Of a DNA stretch of 64,000 nt, positions 36,937 through 53,866 are shown in pieces; within the stretch, counting starts at the first letter, position 1; every line of letters begins with the position of its first letter. The position numbers and the translations under genes are program-made. The notes under the pieces are model-generated. The model saw only the letters and a program-made list of their open reading frames with translations, had not been told where the DNA came from and ran no database searches. Origin of the DNA: a virus; IMG/VR virus record IMGVR_UViG_3300009180_000022. One strand, written 5' to 3'.

Positions 36937-37126
36937 GGTTCTGATGGGGGCCTGTTATGTTATTAATACGTTGATTATCTATAAGAAAACATTCCTCAAG
37001 TAAATATATTACGTTTTTTGGGATGCAAGATAGTAAGGTAAACTTACTAAAAGGGGAAAGAGTTCAGAAAGCAGTGGATTTAATTACAAAGAATTCCTAT
37101 AATCAATCATCAACAGGAGAAAAGCG

Positions 37127-37405
37127 ATGTTTGTACGAGTAAAGGGTAAATTTTTGGATGGTTCGTCTCTTTGGTTCCCTCTGCCGGGGCTGACGAATGC
37201 TAGGGTGAAGGAACTTTTTGGAACTGGGCTCTCCCGCCAAGATCTCGAAAAGTACTCTGATTCGATCGTGATTCGTAGTGAAATGACGAACAATCTGTAT
37301 TCGCTGTACAAATGCTATGGAACGTGGAGGGTTGGCAAGATGGCCGGCGTCACGCCTATCCAGGCCGAATTCGATGCAAAAGAGTTGGGAAAGTTGTTGA
37401 CTTAA
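37127..37405 (+). CDS. Early hypothetical protein
   Basis: Behind cassette 37074; stop TAA lies in next cassette. Confidence 0.7.
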   Translation: MFVRVKGKFLDGSSLWFPLPGLTNARVKELFGTGLSRQDLEKYSDSIVIRSEMTNNLYSLYKCYGTWRVGKMAGVTPIQAEFDAKELGKLLT

Positions 37406-37450
37406 TTACGCCGTTTGACTATAATTGGATATCAACAGAGGAAACAACGA

Positions 37451-38332
37451 ATGAGCAACATCACATTTGAAGACGGTAAGTACGTAGGTCGCATCGATGG
37501 TAAGGTCGTGGTTCGTAGCACTAGCAAGTACTATGTTCAGAAGCGTGTAGAGGGCGTTCCTTCTACCTCGTTTGTGGCACCGGTGGAGGCAACTCCCGCC
37601 GTTGAGTTCCCTATCAACCAGCGTTTCGAATTTGTGTTCGATCTGGTGACGATGGTGGCTACGGGTGCTACTGCATCGGCTATCATTACCGGTGAGGGCG
37701 GATTGGGCAAGACCCATACCGTGGTGCAGGCATTGCAGGCTGCCGGTCTTCGTGATATCTCTGAGGTGCCAGCTGGTGAGGTTGTGCCTCCTAAGTCGAC
37801 GTATCGCCTGGTGAAGGGCTTCTCTACTGCCAAGGGCCTGTATCGTATCTTGGCCGAGAATGCTAATTCGGTGATCGTGTTCGATGATTGCGATAGCGTT
37901 TTGAAAGATGATAATGCTTTGAACATCCTCAAGGGAGCTTTGGATACGTATGGCAAGCGCTTCATCTCCTGGAACTATTCGCGTGATGATGACGATATCC
38001 CTCGCTTCTTTCAATTCAAGGGTGGCATTGTTTTCATCTCCAACAAGACGCTTCCTTCGATCGATCAGGCTGTTCGTTCGCGTGCTATGTGCGTTGACCT
38101 GTCTATGACCCTGGATCAGAAGATTGAGCGTATGGCGATGATTATGCGTGAAGATAGCTTCATGCCCGAGGCATCGATGGAATGCAAGCAAGCATCGCTG
38201 GATTTAATTAACAGCCTTAAGGAGAAATCTAAAGAGGTGTCTATGCGTACGCTTATCAAGACGACGAAGATTGCAATGGCCGGACGTCCTAACTGGAAGT
38301 CTTTGGCCGAATACATGCTCCTTCAGGGTTGA
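37451..38332 (+). CDS. Early P-loop AAA-type ATPase
   Basis: GEGGLGKT, VIVFDDCD, FISN, AVRSR; start at ATG after cassette RBS. Confidence 0.8.
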   Translation: MSNITFEDGKYVGRIDGKVVVRSTSKYYVQKRVEGVPSTSFVAPVEATPAVEFPINQRFEFVFDLVTMVATGATASAIITGEGGLGKTHTVVQALQAAGLRDISEVPAGEVVPPKSTYRLVKGFSTAKGLYRILAENANSVIVFDDCDSVLKDDNALNILKGALDTYGKRFISWNYSRDDDDIPRFFQFKGGIVFISNKTLPSIDQAVRSRAMCVDLSMTLDQKIERMAMIMREDSFMPEASMECKQASLDLINSLKEKSKEVSMRTLIKTTKIAMAGRPNWKSLAEYMLLQG

Positions 38333-38381
38333 TTTAATTACGCCGTTTGACTATAATTGGATATCAACAGGAGAACACGAT

Positions 38382-38993
38382 ATGAGCCACACATTACAGC
38401 CTTATGACATCAACGAAATCGGTAGCTCTGGCTACGGCCGGATCACGGTAAAGATCCAGGGCTACTGGTCTAGCGATCCTATCACGCTGTATGTTCAGCG
38501 TAATAACTACGGATCTGATGAAGGTTGGAAGACGTCTCTATCTCATAGCTCCGGTGGGCGTGATTCAAAGGAAGTGGTTTCGGACATGGAAGCCGCACGC
38601 AACTTCGCCAGTGCCATGCTTACACTGGCTGATATTGGTGAGACGTTGATTGCCGAGCAAGGCGTGGCCCTTGAGGCTGCATATGAGGCTGAACGTGCCC
38701 GGCGCCTGGCGGTGGCCGAGGCGGAGAAGGCTGCCAAGGTTGCTGCGATTGAAGCCGACCCAGCCATTGGTCTGGCTGTTGCATCAGGCATTGTGGCGGA
38801 GATGGCGGCTGCAGCTGCTAACACGTATGCAGTGACTCGTGTGTTCCGTAAGCGTGGATCTGCGGTGACTTCCAATGTCGTGGCACGATGCAACTACAAG
38901 ACCCGATTTGCGGTGAACGGATGCACAGTCTCTAAGAAGGAAGCCATCGAATACATCGCCTCCCACGCCGAATTGGTGGAACAAAAGAGTTGA
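38382..38993 (+). CDS. Early hypothetical protein (Ala-rich)
   Basis: ATG after AGGAG of cassette 38328. Confidence 0.75.
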   Translation: MSHTLQPYDINEIGSSGYGRITVKIQGYWSSDPITLYVQRNNYGSDEGWKTSLSHSSGGRDSKEVVSDMEAARNFASAMLTLADIGETLIAEQGVALEAAYEAERARRLAVAEAEKAAKVAAIEADPAIGLAVASGIVAEMAAAAANTYAVTRVFRKRGSAVTSNVVARCNYKTRFAVNGCTVSKKEAIEYIASHAELVEQKS

Positions 38994-39042
38994 TTTAATT
39001 ACGGGTGCCGACTATAATTGGATATCAACAGGAGAATACGAT

Positions 39043-39267
39043 ATGAACTTAGAAATCGGCACCCAGATCCAATACACATGCGCCCTCGGAACCCTGAAGG
39101 CTGTTGTCGCCGGCATCAAGATTGCCCCTACTGCAAGGAAGGGTTTTCTGAACACCTGGATCACCCTGGATCTGCCAGTACAGGAAGGCATTGAGCGTGC
39201 CCACAAGACTATGATCCCAGGTAACGATGGTGCCCTGAAGATGTTCAAGGTCGCGGTGATTGCATAA
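39043..39267 (+). CDS. Early hypothetical protein
   Basis: ATG after AGGAG of cassette 38989. Confidence 0.75.
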   Translation: MNLEIGTQIQYTCALGTLKAVVAGIKIAPTARKGFLNTWITLDLPVQEGIERAHKTMIPGNDGALKMFKVAVIA

Positions 39268-39330
39268 AAGGGTGGATTTAATTACGCCGTCTGACTATAA
39301 TAACGTATGTTCAGTAAGAAAGGTAACAAA

Positions 39331-39558
39331 ATGCAAGCACAAGTTGGATCTGTCGTGAAGACGTTTGATTTCCCTGGCCACACCGATTGCTACATGATCG
39401 GACTGGTAACCAAAGTGGAACAGGGTCTGCTGCATTTGAACACGATCAAGCGTGTGATGCAGGGCAAGGAACTGGCAGCACCTGCCACCTATCAGACTCC
39501 GGTACAGGGTGCCTCGTTCATGGATGCATCTTTCGAACGCGTGGTGGTGCTAGCATGA
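39331..39558 (+). CDS. Early hypothetical protein (SH3-like beta barrel possible)
   Basis: AAGG RBS behind cassette 39272; VGSVVKTFDF..CYMIG. Confidence 0.7.
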   Translation: MQAQVGSVVKTFDFPGHTDCYMIGLVTKVEQGLLHLNTIKRVMQGKELAAPATYQTPVQGASFMDASFERVVVLA

Positions 39559-39722
39559 GCATTATGAAGCACATCTATTCGCTGGTCCAGGAGCAGTATT
39601 TGGATGGTGATGACGTCGACGACATCGCCTATGAGTTAGCCGAACGCCTGGACCTTGATCCAGAAGATGCCATGTCTATAGTGCTGCGGCTGGTAGAGGA
39701 GCTGAAAGAGGAGTTGATTTAA
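39555..39722 (+). CDS. Small acidic hypothetical protein
   Basis: ATGA coupling; stop within cassette 39713. Confidence 0.6.
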   Translation: MSIMKHIYSLVQEQYLDGDDVDDIAYELAERLDLDPEDAMSIVLRLVEELKEELI

Positions 39723-39766
39723 TTACGTGATTTTCCTATAATTGGATATCAACAGGAGAACACGAT

Positions 39767-39859
39767 ATGACACTCAAAGAATTCATCCAAGGCACTGCCG
39801 TAGGCATGCTGTTTGCTAGCCCCCTAATCATCGAACTTATCAAGGATCTCTGCAAATGA
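39767..39859 (+). CDS. 30 aa hydrophobic peptide (absent from ORF track)
   Basis: MTLKEFIQGTAVGMLFASPLIIELIKDLCK after cassette RBS; ATGA overlap with next gene. Confidence 0.6.
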   Translation: MTLKEFIQGTAVGMLFASPLIIELIKDLCK

Positions 39860-40068
39860 ACACCGTAGCTTCTTACAACGCCTTTGCCCGTATGGCCACT
39901 TCCCTGGAAATCATGGGTTACAGGGACCACAATGCTGTGATCTCCCCGACAGACGCCGGTCGTGATGCCTTCACCTCCATGGTATATGACCTGGACTACA
40001 TGGGTCGGATCTCCCGTGAGGTCACCGAATACGAACTCTTCAACAGCCAGGAGTGCGAATTCGGTTGA
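39856..40068 (+). CDS. Early hypothetical protein
   Basis: Coupled ORF; stop TGA within cassette 40064. Confidence 0.65.
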   Translation: MNTVASYNAFARMATSLEIMGYRDHNAVISPTDAGRDAFTSMVYDLDYMGRISREVTEYELFNSQECEFG

Positions 40069-40117
40069 TTTAATTTCCGGTTATTACTATAATTGGATAT
40101 CAACAGGAGAACACACT

Positions 40118-40321
40118 ATGACACACTACGGAATGTTTACTGATATGGGCAACAGCTTGATAGCCCGCGTTGTTCTGACAGCACGTCAGTTTGCACTCAG
40201 CGAGGCCTCTGTACGCGCCATGCTGGAGGCGATTGCAAAGGATGAGACGTATAGTGAGGCGACTGATACCGCCGTTCGCGAAAGTGTGCTGGCCGATCTC
40301 CGCTCGCCCCGTCAACTGTAA
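40118..40321 (+). CDS. Early hypothetical protein
   Basis: ATG after cassette RBS; YGMFTDMGN, EATDTAVRE. Confidence 0.7.
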   Translation: MTHYGMFTDMGNSLIARVVLTARQFALSEASVRAMLEAIAKDETYSEATDTAVRESVLADLRSPRQL

Positions 40322-40331
40322 GGAGCAACCT

Positions 40332-40508
40332 ATGAATAACCCTATCCCTCGCTGCGGCCTGTTTGCAACCCGTACCCTGGAGGCTATACAGGCCGATATA
40401 GAAGGCCTTCCACCTACCCAGAAGGCACTGGTATACCAGTACGTGATGGCCACACTCAATGCATGTCATGCCATGGTGAAGGAAGAGATCGCCATGGAGT
40501 TGACTTAA
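40332..40508 (+). CDS. Early hypothetical protein
   Basis: AAGGAG RBS; stop within cassette 40499. Confidence 0.65.
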   Translation: MNNPIPRCGLFATRTLEAIQADIEGLPPTQKALVYQYVMATLNACHAMVKEEIAMELT

Positions 40509-40558
40509 TTACGTAATCTGGTTATAATCACTTGTGGTTGTTAAAAAGGATACACACT

Positions 40559-40921
40559 ATGACTGACACTATGACACGCCTTGAGGAACTCCAATGCATT
40601 TTCTGGGATATGTACAAAGACGCCTACGGTGTCCGTCCCCGTGGCATTGATACGTCCACCTGGGACGAGGCTACCTTTAACGCCGAGTTTGACTACCTGG
40701 TGGACTTGATTGGCAAGAACGAGCAGGCGCGCCAGATCGCCGAGCAAGAGGCCGCCCATGCCTTTGAGATGCGTGTGCAATCCATCATGGCGTGCGGGGC
40801 CAAGGATCGTGCCATGGCCCTACGTTGGATCCATGAGGCCGAAGGCTCTGACGGTGATGACGAGTACCTGTGCTATCTGGTTGGCCTGCCCTATCGTTAC
40901 TTTGCCAAGGAGGCTGTATGA
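40559..40921 (+). CDS. Conserved early phage protein
   Basis: WDMYKDAYGVRPR, GAKDRAMALRW, YLVGLPYRYF. Confidence 0.75.
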   Translation: MTDTMTRLEELQCIFWDMYKDAYGVRPRGIDTSTWDEATFNAEFDYLVDLIGKNEQARQIAEQEAAHAFEMRVQSIMACGAKDRAMALRWIHEAEGSDGDDEYLCYLVGLPYRYFAKEAV

Positions 40922-41091
40922 CTGATCGTACTATGCGAGTGATCCCCAGCGTGGGTGAAGCAGGCTTGGACCCAGAAGCCAGTTCGGGCAACGGGCAGTT
41001 CTATGTCCGTCTCTACGATGGATCCTACGATATGTGTGGCTATGACACCATCGAAGAAGCCTGGGAAGAACTCATTGCCATTGCAGGTTGA
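40918..41091 (+). CDS. Early hypothetical protein
   Basis: ATGA coupling; stop TGA within cassette 41087. Confidence 0.6.
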   Translation: MTDRTMRVIPSVGEAGLDPEASSGNGQFYVRLYDGSYDMCGYDTIEEAWEELIAIAG

Positions 41092-41144
41092 TTTAATTAC
41101 GGATATTGCTTATAATTGGACATCTAATCTACTAAGGAATCACA

Positions 41145-41513
41145 ATGAACTACTTTTTTAATGATACGCCCGTTACTGAGGCCGAATACAATAAGCTTAT
41201 CACCGAGGCGGTAGAGGCGGCCGAAGTCCTGGAGCATGCTAAGGCGGCTGCATTGGCTGTTGCCAAGGCCGAAAAGGAGGCTTTGCCTAAGAAGGTGGCA
41301 AAGGCCAAGGTTGTGAAGGCTCCTAAGGGTCCTAAGAAGATGGCAACCCCTGAGGTCAAGCTTGGTTCTAAGACCGATACCGCCCGTAACCTGATGCTTG
41401 GTGTTGGTGTAGAAAACAAGGCCGCATGCATTTTGGCTATCATGGAAGGTCTGGGAGTGACTAAGGGTAACGCCTCCTGCTACTACGCCAACGTGATGAA
41501 GAAGCTGGGATGA
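41145..41513 (+). CDS. Early Lys/Ala-rich, possibly DNA-binding protein
   Basis: KKVAKAKVVKAPK linker and helical C-terminal domain. Confidence 0.65.
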   Translation: MNYFFNDTPVTEAEYNKLITEAVEAAEVLEHAKAAALAVAKAEKEALPKKVAKAKVVKAPKGPKKMATPEVKLGSKTDTARNLMLGVGVENKAACILAIMEGLGVTKGNASCYYANVMKKLG

Positions 41514-41659
41514 TGATGACCCCTGAAGACGTCTGGGACGAACTTGTGGCCATGTTCGGTGATCGCCTGCCGGATATGGACCACGAACCCATTCGCTTTG
41601 CCTACTACGTCAAACTGTACCTATACCAAAAAGGATTGAATAATGCTAACCCGTCCTAA
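41510..41659 (+). CDS. 49 aa hypothetical protein (absent from ORF track)
   Basis: ATGA coupling; MFGDRLPDMDHEPIRFAYYVKLY. Confidence 0.6.
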   Translation: MMMTPEDVWDELVAMFGDRLPDMDHEPIRFAYYVKLYLYQKGLNNANPS

Positions 41660-41747
41660 AGAACACGAATATGTGAGTCATGTGGCTTATACGCGTGCCT
41701 TGGAAGAATACTGTGATGCACTAGAAAAGGAGAAAACCAATGGATGA
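41643..41747 (+). CDS. 34 aa hypothetical protein (absent from ORF track)
   Basis: AAGGA RBS; MLTRPKEHEYVSHVAYTRALEEYCDALE. Confidence 0.55.
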   Translation: MLTRPKEHEYVSHVAYTRALEEYCDALEKEKTNG

Positions 41748-41937
41748 AACACCGAATGCAGCTGCATTCGCCAATGCAGGCTACGCCATCTACAACCATC
41801 CGAAACCTGTCGGATGCTGGGTGCTATACGAACAGGCGCCTGTTAAGACGTCATTCTCCATGTACTACAAGCCCACAGACGAACAGATCAAGAACACCGA
41901 GGAACTCCTTGGATGGACCTGGAATGATGCAGAATGA
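41740..41937 (+). CDS. Hypothetical protein
   Basis: AAGGAG RBS. Confidence 0.6.
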   Translation: MDETPNAAAFANAGYAIYNHPKPVGCWVLYEQAPVKTSFSMYYKPTDEQIKNTEELLGWTWNDAE

Positions 41938-42134
41938 CCGAACCCCGCCGTATCACCAAACCCGAACGTGTCTATGAATACATGCTGACTGGGGAATGGG
42001 CATATGCCGACTTCACCCAATGGCTTGGTGAATTCGTGGAGGCCTCTCAGGACAAGGCCTATCATGCCGGCCTGCAGTGTGGTATAGAGGTCGAAAAAGA
42101 ACGGGTCTCCCAGGCGAAAAAACAGTTGACTTAA
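41934..42134 (+). CDS. Hypothetical protein
   Basis: ATGA coupling; stop within cassette 42125. Confidence 0.6.
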   Translation: MTEPRRITKPERVYEYMLTGEWAYADFTQWLGEFVEASQDKAYHAGLQCGIEVEKERVSQAKKQLT

Positions 42135-42180
42135 TTACGTCATTCTCCTATAATTGGATATCAACAGGAGAAAACGACTT

Positions 42181-42411
42181 ATGACTAACTTGAATACCTA
42201 CGTAGACCGCATCAACAAATTCGCCCGCATCTTTGGCAAGCGCCAGCTGTCCTTGGCCATTGCCGCCGATCGTCAGACGATTGCCGAAGGCCTGGAAGGT
42301 GATCTGAGCCCCGAAAACCTAACCTGTGACGGTGAACTGTCTGCCGCCCAGGTCCGCCAGCGTGCCAAGTTCCTCAATGCATGCGTCAAAGAACTGGCGG
42401 CTCTGAAATGA
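42181..42411 (+). CDS. Conserved early phage protein
   Basis: LSPENLTCDGEL motif; cassette RBS. Confidence 0.72.
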   Translation: MTNLNTYVDRINKFARIFGKRQLSLAIAADRQTIAEGLEGDLSPENLTCDGELSAAQVRQRAKFLNACVKELAALK

Positions 42412-42635
42412 ACAAACGAATTAAAGAACTGGCCGAACAGGCTGGAATGATTATTGTTGACGATGAGTTTTCAACTTATGGAAAGTTTGCTGAAAAGTTC
42501 TCCGAGTTAGTAGCCACACATTGTGCTAATATCTGCCTAGAAATGGCAGCAAAGTGTGCAGGACTACCAGGTGACGGTGCTCTTGCCAAAGATTGTGCCT
42601 ACTGGATTCTAGAAGATTTTGGAGTAAATAAATGA
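42408..42635 (+). CDS. MNxRIKELA...FGV mini-protein family, copy 1
   Basis: MNKRIKELAEQAG..EKFSELV..FGVNK. Confidence 0.7.
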   Translation: MNKRIKELAEQAGMIIVDDEFSTYGKFAEKFSELVATHCANICLEMAAKCAGLPGDGALAKDCAYWILEDFGVNK

Positions 42636-42901
42636 ACGAACGAATTAAAGAACTATACGAGCAGAGTCTCACCCACACCACCGGCAAGGACCACGCTGGC
42701 AATCCTATGCTGGTTATTAAACAGAACCCTGAAAAGTTTGCCGAGTTGATTGTTCGGGAATGTCTCGAAGAATTGCGATATACGGTTCTTGATACACAGG
42801 AATTGCGTCGGGACAAAAGCACTGATTATCAAGTGGGTTGGGAAGATGGTATGTTTGATGCCGGTGAAACGATTAAGAACATTTTTGGAGTTGAAGAATG
42901 A
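42632..42901 (+). CDS. MNxRIKELA...FGV mini-protein family, copy 2
   Basis: MNERIKEL..EKFAELIVREC..FGVEE. Confidence 0.72.
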   Translation: MNERIKELYEQSLTHTTGKDHAGNPMLVIKQNPEKFAELIVRECLEELRYTVLDTQELRRDKSTDYQVGWEDGMFDAGETIKNIFGVEE

Positions 42902-43152
42902 ATCAACATCTAATAGATAAACTGCTACACAAGGCTGGTGCTCGCTTTGGTGCCGAGGGTATTGACTATTCTGGTTTTACGTCAAGCAAGTTCGCCCGGT
43001 TGATTGTTCAGGAATGTATCACTATTGTGGACGAGCAGAAAGAATGCTTACACGAAGAACAGAAATATTGGCATGATCGAGACTATGGATATGCGTTGGC
43101 AGTGGACGATGCCAGCAAGGGTATCAAACAATTTTTCGGAGTTGAAGAATGA
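42898..43152 (+). CDS. MNxRIKELA...FGV mini-protein family, copy 3
   Basis: KFARLIVQEC..FFGVEE. Confidence 0.72.
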   Translation: MNQHLIDKLLHKAGARFGAEGIDYSGFTSSKFARLIVQECITIVDEQKECLHEEQKYWHDRDYGYALAVDDASKGIKQFFGVEE

Positions 43153-43241
43153 ACTTCTTCTGGGGATTCCTAGTGGGCTACATTGTTGGGGTGCTGTATA
43201 TGTGTTACCGGTCTAATGAAGATCAGAGAAATAACAGTTGA
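43149..43241 (+). CDS. 30 aa single-pass membrane peptide (absent from ORF track)
   Basis: MNFFWGFLVGYIVGVLYMCYRSNEDQRNNS; stop TGA in cassette 43237. Confidence 0.6.
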   Translation: MNFFWGFLVGYIVGVLYMCYRSNEDQRNNS

Positions 43242-43271
43242 CTTAATTACGCCGTTTGACTATAATAGGAC

Positions 43272-43410
43272 ATACAAAGGAAGAACGCACATACCGCCGG
43301 TCGTATCACACTGAGTAATCGGGGTGCCGGAGATAGTCTCATGGAGACTGAAGGGATGCTAGTGTATAACCTGTGCACGGGCCGATTGCTAGAGTGTGCT
43401 TCCTGCGTAT
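43272..43410 (+). ncRNA. Candidate structured ncRNA (~139 nt) with its own early promoter
   Basis: Closing stem ATAC-AA-AGGAAG..GCACAT / GTGTGC-TTCCT-GC-GTAT; internal hairpins CTGA-GTAA-TCGG, AGTCTC-ATG-GAGACT, CCTG-TGCA-CGGG; no RBS-led ORF. Confidence 0.6.
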
Positions 43411-43434
43411 ACCTATTTTTGTTTGGAGATTGTT

Positions 43435-43815
43435 ATGAGCTATATGCGTGATTATTGTGATGTGAGTGTGCTGAAGGGCAAGACTCTGGTTTCTTGCGTG
43501 TCGATCGATGACGTGATCACATTCACGACTTCTGACGGTGATGTATACAGAATGTACCATGGGCAAGACTGCTGCGAGTCGGTGTACATCGACGACATCG
43601 TTGGCGACTTGCAAGACTTGGTTGGTTCTGAGATCCTGATGGCAGAGGAAGTGGAAGGCGAAAGCCCTGCTGAATTTGATCCTAACGATTACGAATCATA
43701 CACATGGACGTTCTACAAGTTTGCAACGATCAAGGGATATGTGGACATCCGTTGGTGCGGCTCGTCTAATGGGTACTACTCAGAGGGCGTTGACTTTTGT
43801 AAGATAGGAGATTAA
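43435..43815 (+). CDS. Conserved phage hypothetical protein
   Basis: HGQDCCESV, TWTFYK, RWCGSSNGYYSE; GGAG RBS. Confidence 0.75.
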   Translation: MSYMRDYCDVSVLKGKTLVSCVSIDDVITFTTSDGDVYRMYHGQDCCESVYIDDIVGDLQDLVGSEILMAEEVEGESPAEFDPNDYESYTWTFYKFATIKGYVDIRWCGSSNGYYSEGVDFCKIGD

Positions 43816-43816
43816 T

Positions 43817-43978
43817 ATGACTGAACTAGAAATATTGCAGGCGAAAGCTAAGGCGATCCTGGAAAGCTGTGCCCATTGGAAGTCGTGTCAGGACGGCTCC
43901 TATGAAATGGCCCTTCACTATGCAGGGTATGATGCATTGTGCAAGCAGATTTGGGAACACAAGAATGAACTGTTGTGA
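43817..43978 (+). CDS. 53 aa hypothetical protein (absent from ORF track)
   Basis: AGGAG RBS; MTELEILQAKAKAILESC. Confidence 0.55.
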   Translation: MTELEILQAKAKAILESCAHWKSCQDGSYEMALHYAGYDALCKQIWEHKNELL

Positions 43979-46516: not shown

Positions 46517-46546
46517 GTTGCTTTAATTTTCATTTGTGACTATAAT
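46517..46546 (+). promoter_or_regulatory. Early promoter upstream of RNA ligase
   Basis: GTTGCTTTAATT...TATAAT, 17 bp spacer. Confidence 0.78.
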
Positions 46547-53836: not shown

Positions 53837-53866
53837 GTTGATTTAATTACTTGAAGTTCATATAAT
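53837..53866 (+). promoter_or_regulatory. Early promoter (cassette-type)
   Basis: GTTGATTTAATTAC...TATAAT. Confidence 0.8.

Follow-up and report, generated by a model that had tools for sequence, protein, structure and literature searches.

In a 64,000-nucleotide stretch of viral DNA (IMG/VR record IMGVR_UViG_3300009180_000022; hereinafter the window), we identified a structured leader RNA motif that is new and of narrow distribution. It comprises a domain of 139 nt on the plus strand (43272–43410; 1 = 43272 in the element numbering used below), which was delineated by covariance-model matches and covariation. Comparison of its variants leaves little doubt that this element is a real, evolutionarily conserved structured RNA, and it very probably forms part of the leader of the mRNA for a DUF7448 protein encoded directly downstream. 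As to its role, the reading that we favor, with a probability of about 0.4, is that it acts in cis as a 5' leader, either stabilizing an early phage message or tuning its translation.

The window phage encodes a terminase, a tail sheath, a gp43-type DNA polymerase, UvsX and an RNA ligase and is a distant T4-type myophage. Its DNA polymerase shares only ~49% identity with those of cyanophages, and a DNA-level search of INPHARED, at both near and distant settings, recovered no phage similar to the window. From ~37000 to 43300, about 12 nearly identical early-promoter cassettes form an array in a hyperplastic region; their sigma70-type promoters take the form TTGAYTTAATTACG-N9-TATAAT and are, in most cases, followed by a common leader (TGGATATCAACAGGAGAACACGATATG) and then a small ORF. 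This array corresponds to the promoter cassettes (PeSLs) of the hyperplastic regions of T4-type phages (PMC2839356, PMC4122927). Looser copies of the array promoter are found outside the main array at 46518, 53838 and 55381, of which that at 53838 seems to begin a nearly leaderless message (TATAAT-TAATGTATG); hence, the promoter ahead of the element is not the last of its kind, as an earlier note on this DNA had supposed.

The immediate surroundings of the element are variable. Just upstream lie three tandem paralogous mini-genes (MNxRIKEL...FGVEE; 42381–43152); L083, an IMG/VR relative with 96% identity, has other paralogues in their stead but retains the last ~25 nt and the element, indicating a recombination hot spot. 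A hydrophobic mini-ORF of 30 aa (MNFFWGFLVGYIVGVLYMCY...; 43149–43241, plus strand), with a weak, below-cutoff match to DUF3789, overlaps the stop of the preceding gene (ATGA) and ends with a TGA that falls within the -35 hexamer of the promoter ahead of the element. Elsewhere, downstream of an array-type promoter, a ~72%-related phage (L082, 8420–8765, minus strand) has ~330 nt of GC-rich DNA that contains neither an RBS nor an ORF; this stretch folds unexceptionally (z = -1.2) and has no Rfam match.

The element lies behind a promoter, as originally proposed: it has its own sigma70-type array promoter (43238–43266, plus strand; TTGACT-N17-TATAAT), which agrees with the consensus at 11 of 12 positions. 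What follows this promoter likewise bears out the earlier observation that the usual RBS and ATG are missing, in that the sequence downstream of 43266 reads AGGAC-AUACAAAGGAAG... with no start codon, and AGGACATACAAAGGAAG... takes the place of the usual array leader. The predicted transcription start, A43272, is the sixth nucleotide past the -10 hexamer and coincides with position 1 of P1, the helix that closes the RNA. The array-type promoter is shared by the window and L083; five other variants of the RNA have a different promoter at an equal distance, namely TTGACCTTTTTGT...TATAAT in L103, L112, L116 and L141, and TTGACC-N17-GATAAT in L145. Homology among the variants starts at the -10 hexamer, and two unrelated promoter families both end 6–7 nt ahead of RNA position 1, which is the sixth or seventh nucleotide after the hexamer; from this, we predict that the RNA starts with the first nucleotide of P1. 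Accordingly qualified, initiation at A43272 and an early timing of expression are what these promoter sequences lead us to expect. As with PeSL cassettes, the promoter in the window sits in a cassette array, and genes are gained or lost at cassette and RBS repeats (as seen for DUF7448 in L083, below). Unlike them, only the promoter at 43238–43266 belongs to the array: the 139-nt RNA occurs once, has a covarying fold of its own and, in other lineages, lies behind an unrelated, non-array promoter.

The consensus structure from all variants is closed by P1, a helix of 17 bp between positions 1–17 (43272–43288; AUACAAAGGAAGAACGC) and 123–139 (43394–43410; GUGUGCUUCCUGCGUAU), whose 5' strand is nearly invariant and contains an SD-like AAGGAAG. 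Next comes Px, which pairs CAUACC (19–24; 43290–43295) with GGGAUG (82–87; 43353–43358); it is seen in the minimum free energy (MFE) structures of L103 and L112, shows three compensatory pairs in L145, and in the window copy has one A-G mismatch. Px encloses two hairpins, both with compensatory changes. P2 (43297–43330; pairs 26–29/56–59, 36–38/53–55 and 40–43/48–51) has a 6-nt bulge, an A-G mismatch and a GUAA tetraloop and is altered in this manner in L103, L112 and L145, and P3 (43334–43350; pairs 63–69 with 73–79), of 7 bp with an AUG triloop, in L116. The remaining hairpin, P4 (43359–43392; pairs 88–93/116–121 and 99–102/107–110), lies beside Px and combines variable internal loops with an invariant CCUG-UGCA-CGGG tip. 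The linkers at the junctions are very short (A18; G25; A60-G61-A62; A80-A81; A122). All four helices drawn in the earlier note are retained in this architecture, but the register of P1 had to be set to 1–17/123–139, and, with the fifth helix, Px, added, two three-way junctions stacked on each other replace the four-way junction. Similarly, the GNRA loop recognized in P2 holds for the window (GUAA) but is not universal, since L112 has a pentaloop.

Taken alone, the window copy folds no better than might be expected of many sequences of its composition. It is the weakest folder among the variants, with mismatches at A13-G127 and A22-G84; its MFE of -46.6 kcal/mol (z = -1.84) is equaled by 8 of 200 shuffles, and the opposite strand gives a still weaker fold (z = -1.0). 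Every pairing listed in the earlier note does exist in the window sequence. However, that drawing as a whole evaluates to -38.9 kcal/mol, which is about the shuffle mean, and differs in its interior from the MFE structure; only the outer stem (P1) and the AGUCUC/GAGACU hairpin attain a high pair probability. The interior of the MFE structure was rejected because its long helix (43–51/111–119) is not maintained in L103, and RNAalifold on as few as three sequences already gives the four-helix architecture rather than the MFE structure of the window. The MFE structures of L103, L112 and L145, the last of these a 90-nt variant, coincide with the consensus fold; their z values are -4.2, -4.5 and -4.1, respectively.

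The case for conservation is carried by the substitutions. The tip of P2 goes from CUGA-GUAA-UCGG to CUUG-GCAA-CAAG in L103 and to CUGGG-UGUUC-CCCAG in L112, and its base from CCGG/CCGG to CCCU/AGGG in L145, with two pairs changed; P3 goes from AGUCUC/GAGACU to AGCUGC/GUGGCU in L116; and the three altered pairs of Px in L145 are A-U to G-C, A-U to U-A and C-G to U-A. P1 and P4 present several C-G to U-G and G-U to A-U changes, those in P1 being of the wobble kind only, and G134U together with C135U (in L112 and L116) closes an internal loop of P1. The many G-U pairs imply that the structure is specific to the plus strand. Aligning 6 sequences with MAFFT gave 95.9% paired cells and 5 pairs changed on both sides; the covariation score was reached in none of 500 shuffles, and the number of pairs changed on both sides in 2 of 500. 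The corresponding figures for a model-fitted alignment of all 8 sequences are 94.5% and 12, with 0/500 shuffles reaching the observed value on any of five measures and partner-slid controls giving 34–44% paired cells and 0–3 pairs; these values are to be read in the light of there being 8 variants from one narrow clade with mosaic histories and of one of the two alignments being fitted to the model, and the independent covariation events are few because the variants are few and several share blocks through recombination. Further, the RNA of L116 shares 88% identity with that of the window, as against 72% for the adjacent coding sequence and ~50–55% for its third/fourfold positions. Thus, the fold of the ~139-nt multibranch RNA first drawn from the window is kept across the variants.

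The homologue search and covariation test by which the earlier note wished its proposal to be judged yielded seven further variants, whose helices covary, with the above proviso regarding P1. These are L083, L103, L112, L116/117/118, L126 (its copy being truncated at the 5' end), L141/142/143 and L144/145, from lake and other metagenomes. The L083 copy differs by two substitutions (98% identity), one of which makes codon 9 of an internal 36-aa ORF a stop. L103, with an 82%-identical element, came from an exact-word metagenome scan, whereas L112, L116/117/118, L126, L141/142/143 and L144/145 came from contigs encoding the closest DUF7448 proteins and were confirmed with two covariance models (R1 and R2), whose matches to the whole 139-nt domain score 153–167 bits. 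Searches farther afield point to a restricted distribution. Exact-pattern scans recovered L083 alone in IMG/VR and, in metagenomes beyond L103, 17 matches sharing only the 18–20 nt seed; a pattern scan of GTDB genomes gave two matches, against ~nine expected by chance, neither of which was matched by R2 at E <= 1. The RNA is absent from all 80 IMG/VR DUF7448 loci that were retrieved, and neither BLAST nor either covariance model found it in the near-complete relatives G001 and G005 or in the partial records G002 and G003. Using the 184-aa upstream neighbor as an anchor led to distant proteins only, with no RNA. Where present, the element is found as one copy per genome, always at the same locus. 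Hence, so far as these searches of sequence collections extend, it is a single-copy family confined to a narrow clade, in which the DUF7448 proteins are at least 72% identical to that of the window. In a separate DUF7448 locus (L031, 2240–2500; IMG/VR 3300020735_000006), the gene is preceded by tRNA-gene-like sequence with GGTTCGAATC-type T arms and not by the leader RNA.

The element also lies outside the known RNA families. Against the 4227 models of Rfam 15, there was no match at the gathering threshold in the whole window or in L081, L082, L083 and L089; at E <= 10, the region 43100–43600 gave only chance snoRNA-type matches of 12–23 bits, against gathering thresholds of 46–100, and none to known ribozyme models. 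As ARAGORN also reported 0 tRNA or tmRNA genes in the whole window, the initial impression of an undescribed RNA conforming to no tRNA, riboswitch or ribozyme consensus is upheld. The RNA occurs as a single unit per genome with no terminator, at variance with type III antitoxin RNAs, which are tandemly repeated ahead of the toxin gene and set apart from it by a terminator, and as one copy at a constant locus without target-site duplication at its flanks, at variance with MITE-like elements, of which many copies are dispersed. We also compared it to rnaC of T4 (species 1 RNA; NC_000866, 70908–71046), which is likewise 139 nt long, from a T4-type phage, and shows stable-RNA-like pairing of its ends; however, the tRNA-like T arm (GGUUCGAAUCC) and the tRNA-cluster location of rnaC have no counterpart in the element. 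An identity of the two was rejected, as their alignment showed no meaningful similarity, the T arm is missing from the element, and there are no tRNA genes in the window. Another parallel is offered by the orphan riboswitch-like leader motifs that have emerged from comparative genomics in Weinberg-type surveys (PMC2864571, PMC8040213): like them, the element is a metagenomic, covarying conserved fold upstream of one gene family; unlike them, it matches none of the Rfam 15 models, has no detected expression platform and is known from only 8 variants.

A natural minimal version helps define the core of this RNA. In L144/L145, it is reduced to 90 nt, with P4 replaced by ~4 nt and P2 cut to a 4-bp hairpin, but it retains P1, Px and P3 as well as the junction purines, and the linker and SD still follow. 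Thus, the GUGCAC tip and the GNRA loop are dispensable, and multimerization via the self-complementary GUGCAC tip, as once suggested, is weakened as an idea by a natural variant without the whole P4 hairpin. The joint loss of P4 and the distal part of P2 is what one would expect if these two peripheral elements contact each other.

We next consider what the RNA is attached to. It is followed by an AU-rich single-stranded linker (ACCUAUUUUUGUUU) and an SD, GGAGA at 43425–43429 (43411–43434 in all, plus strand), and then by the gene that it leads, encoding a DUF7448 protein of 126 aa (PF24240, phrog_2650; 43435–43815, plus strand). The 14-nt linker and GGAGA are conserved with the RNA in all variants, to the same degree as P1, and the ATG lies 5–7 nt further on. 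No terminator-like site was found between 43410 and 43435, and in folds of the RNA with 58 downstream nt the domain forms independently, with the linker and SD unpaired. The ORF that follows is DUF7448 in 7 of the 8 variants and, in L083, the next gene. To elaborate, DUF7448 is bracketed in the window by GGAGATT repeats (43425–43431 and 43811–43817), respectively comprising its own SD and that of the next gene. In L083 (2809–2830) it is missing precisely between these repeats, with the RNA, linker and SD fused to the next gene, and this is a case of RBS-repeat-mediated gene loss or gain. Since there is no terminator and the linker and SD run straight into an ORF in all 8 variants, the RNA is at the least a 5' leader of that gene rather than, as had been suggested, a transcript that stands in place of a gene cassette. 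The AlphaFold2 model of the DUF7448 protein is all-beta (pLDDT 84.6), with no recognizable nucleic-acid-binding fold; a Foldseek search with it against the PDB returned no match at E <= 0.001, and a literature search found no paper mentioning DUF7448.

We propose, as the simplest account, the following mechanism for a cis-acting leader. Host RNA polymerase would begin at the predicted A43272, and the first 17 nt of the transcript would pair with nt 123–139 to form P1, burying the 5' end in a helix. P1 would stack on Px, which carries P2 and P3, with P4 branching beside it, and beyond the domain there would follow the unstructured AU-rich linker, the exposed SD and the DUF7448 ORF. The buried 5' end would deny single-stranded entry to RNases of the RppH/RNase E or RNase J type while the RBS stays open; the early mRNA might thereby be protected and/or tuned in cis, and the conserved purines of the junction (G25, A60-G61-A62 and A80-A81) could furnish a docking site for a protein. 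Both the stabilizing effect and any binding partner are our suppositions. 5'-terminal stem-loops with almost no unpaired 5' nucleotides stabilize E. coli mRNAs such as ompA, and the element has the features that such a stabilizer calls for: the predicted start is position 1 of P1, the SD downstream is free, and, as in the ompA 5' UTR, a first transcribed nucleotide that is predicted to be paired is combined with an open AU-rich ribosome-binding region. Moreover, the RNA, linker and SD travel as one module, including in the fusion to a different ORF in L083. Unlike the ompA-type stabilizers, however, the element has five helices, two three-way junctions and invariant junction purines. A simple hairpin would be enough for stabilization, leaving these purines and the near-invariant P1 unexplained; their retention even in the 90-nt variant suggests a more specific recognition.

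This consideration lends some room to the tentative alternative that the element is a new functional class of phage RNA in its own right, acting either as a sensor whose junction binds a ligand or as a released stable RNA that neutralizes a host factor early in infection, with P4 and the distal part of P2 as an optional tertiary clamp. For a released RNA in particular, the leader might be cut at an RNase E-type site in the AU-rich linker, with its ends locked by P1, to yield a stable trans-acting small RNA that serves as a decoy, sponge or anti-defense RNA against a host or phage protein or RNA. The engagement of both ends in a long helix (an arrangement shared by many stable RNAs), a fold that is autonomous from the downstream sequence, the invariance of the junction nucleotides and the P1 sequence, and the 98% identity retained in L083 despite the loss of DUF7448 would all be in keeping with this. 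Nevertheless, we hold it to be doubtful: no terminator was found, an SD and ORF always lie within 24 nt, and no target can be named; further, the deletion in L083 is recent (the genomes being ~96% identical) and may be neutral, and the absence of the RNA from the near-complete relatives G001 and G005 argues against a core function.

We think it unlikely that the element is a sensor leader, with a Px/P2/P3 junction that recognizes a metabolite or a protein, perhaps that encoded by DUF7448, so as to alter translation or decay of the message, even though the fold itself is aptamer-like and covarying. Its compact junction, with unpaired purines that stay invariant while the helices covary, the fact that the 90-nt variant has lost P4 and distal P2 together, which would suit an auxiliary tertiary clamp, and the tight linkage to a single gene family are all features that one might look for in such an RNA. 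What is lacking is an expression platform: there is neither a terminator nor any conserved pairing that would compete for the SD, which together with the linker remains unpaired in the extended folds, so that a classical riboswitch is unsupported. A candidate anti-SD in P3 is lost in L116; the CUUCC of P1 was also considered as an anti-SD and set aside, as it offers only a 4-bp pairing across a ~21-nt loop. The all-beta model of the DUF7448 protein speaks against autoregulation of this sort in showing no recognizable nucleic-acid-binding fold, and thousands of DUF7448 genes do without the RNA.

That the element is a processing or antitermination signal we regard as improbable. Under this proposal, P1 and Px, coaxially stacked over ~23 bp, would serve as an RNase III-type stalk, or the P2–P3 pair would act on RNA polymerase in the manner of the HK022 put RNA. 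The location directly after an early promoter, the pairing of the 5' and 3' ends into a helix of about two turns and a minimal core of two adjacent hairpins would fit, and the early RNase III sites of T7, the stalks of rRNA and put do similarly present structured RNA right after early promoters, with a long helix formed from distant segments. Yet the resemblance is positional only: RNase III cleavage leaves the sequence invariance unexplained, and no downstream terminator in need of suppression was found.

More improbable still is a leader peptide that regulates the downstream gene. In L083, L103, L112, L116 and L141, a GGAGA followed, after a 7-nt spacer, by the AUG of the P3 triloop opens an 8-codon frame (METEGMLV), and this constancy of length in 5 of the 8 variants, along with the synonymous nature of all three substitutions in L103, might hint at translation. 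However, the stop is lost in the window (43341–43451) and L126, where the frame extends to 36 aa, the AUG is absent from the 90-nt variant, two residues are changed in L116 by the very mutations that are compensatory in P3, base pairing accounts just as well for every synonymous change, and P2 and P3 bury both the SD and the AUG. The 36-aa ORF was separately rejected as a gene for a small protein, as it is cut to 8 codons in five variants and has no AUG in L145. Lastly, it is hardly credible that the element is a non-functional remnant, that is, a decayed gene cassette or a MITE-like inverted-repeat element folding by chance, for although its first ~25 nt look like an array leader of the standard kind whose RBS and ATG have degraded, P1 resembles 17-bp terminal inverted repeats and the window copy has an unexceptional fold, four inner helices show compensatory and G-U-preserving changes, the RNA is far better conserved than neighboring synonymous sites, it is single-copy in a constant place with no target-site duplication, and the same RNA is also found behind a different promoter family.

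To our knowledge, the structured leader RNAs of lytic phages are poorly catalogued, with almost all known examples coming from a few model phages. Against this backdrop, the element, for which we prefer the reading of a cis-acting stabilizer or translation-tuning leader, provides a compact case (90–141 nt) from uncultured, probably freshwater T4-like phages, with covarying helices, a natural minimal version, and a defined promoter and downstream gene. The RNA could be synthesized for direct tests of its effects on stability, of ligand or protein binding and of processing. It also offers a first handle on DUF7448, a widespread and uncharacterized family of phage genes. Finally, it shows that, within the hyperplastic early regions of T4-type phages, a module of RNA plus RBS can pass from one promoter or gene to another.
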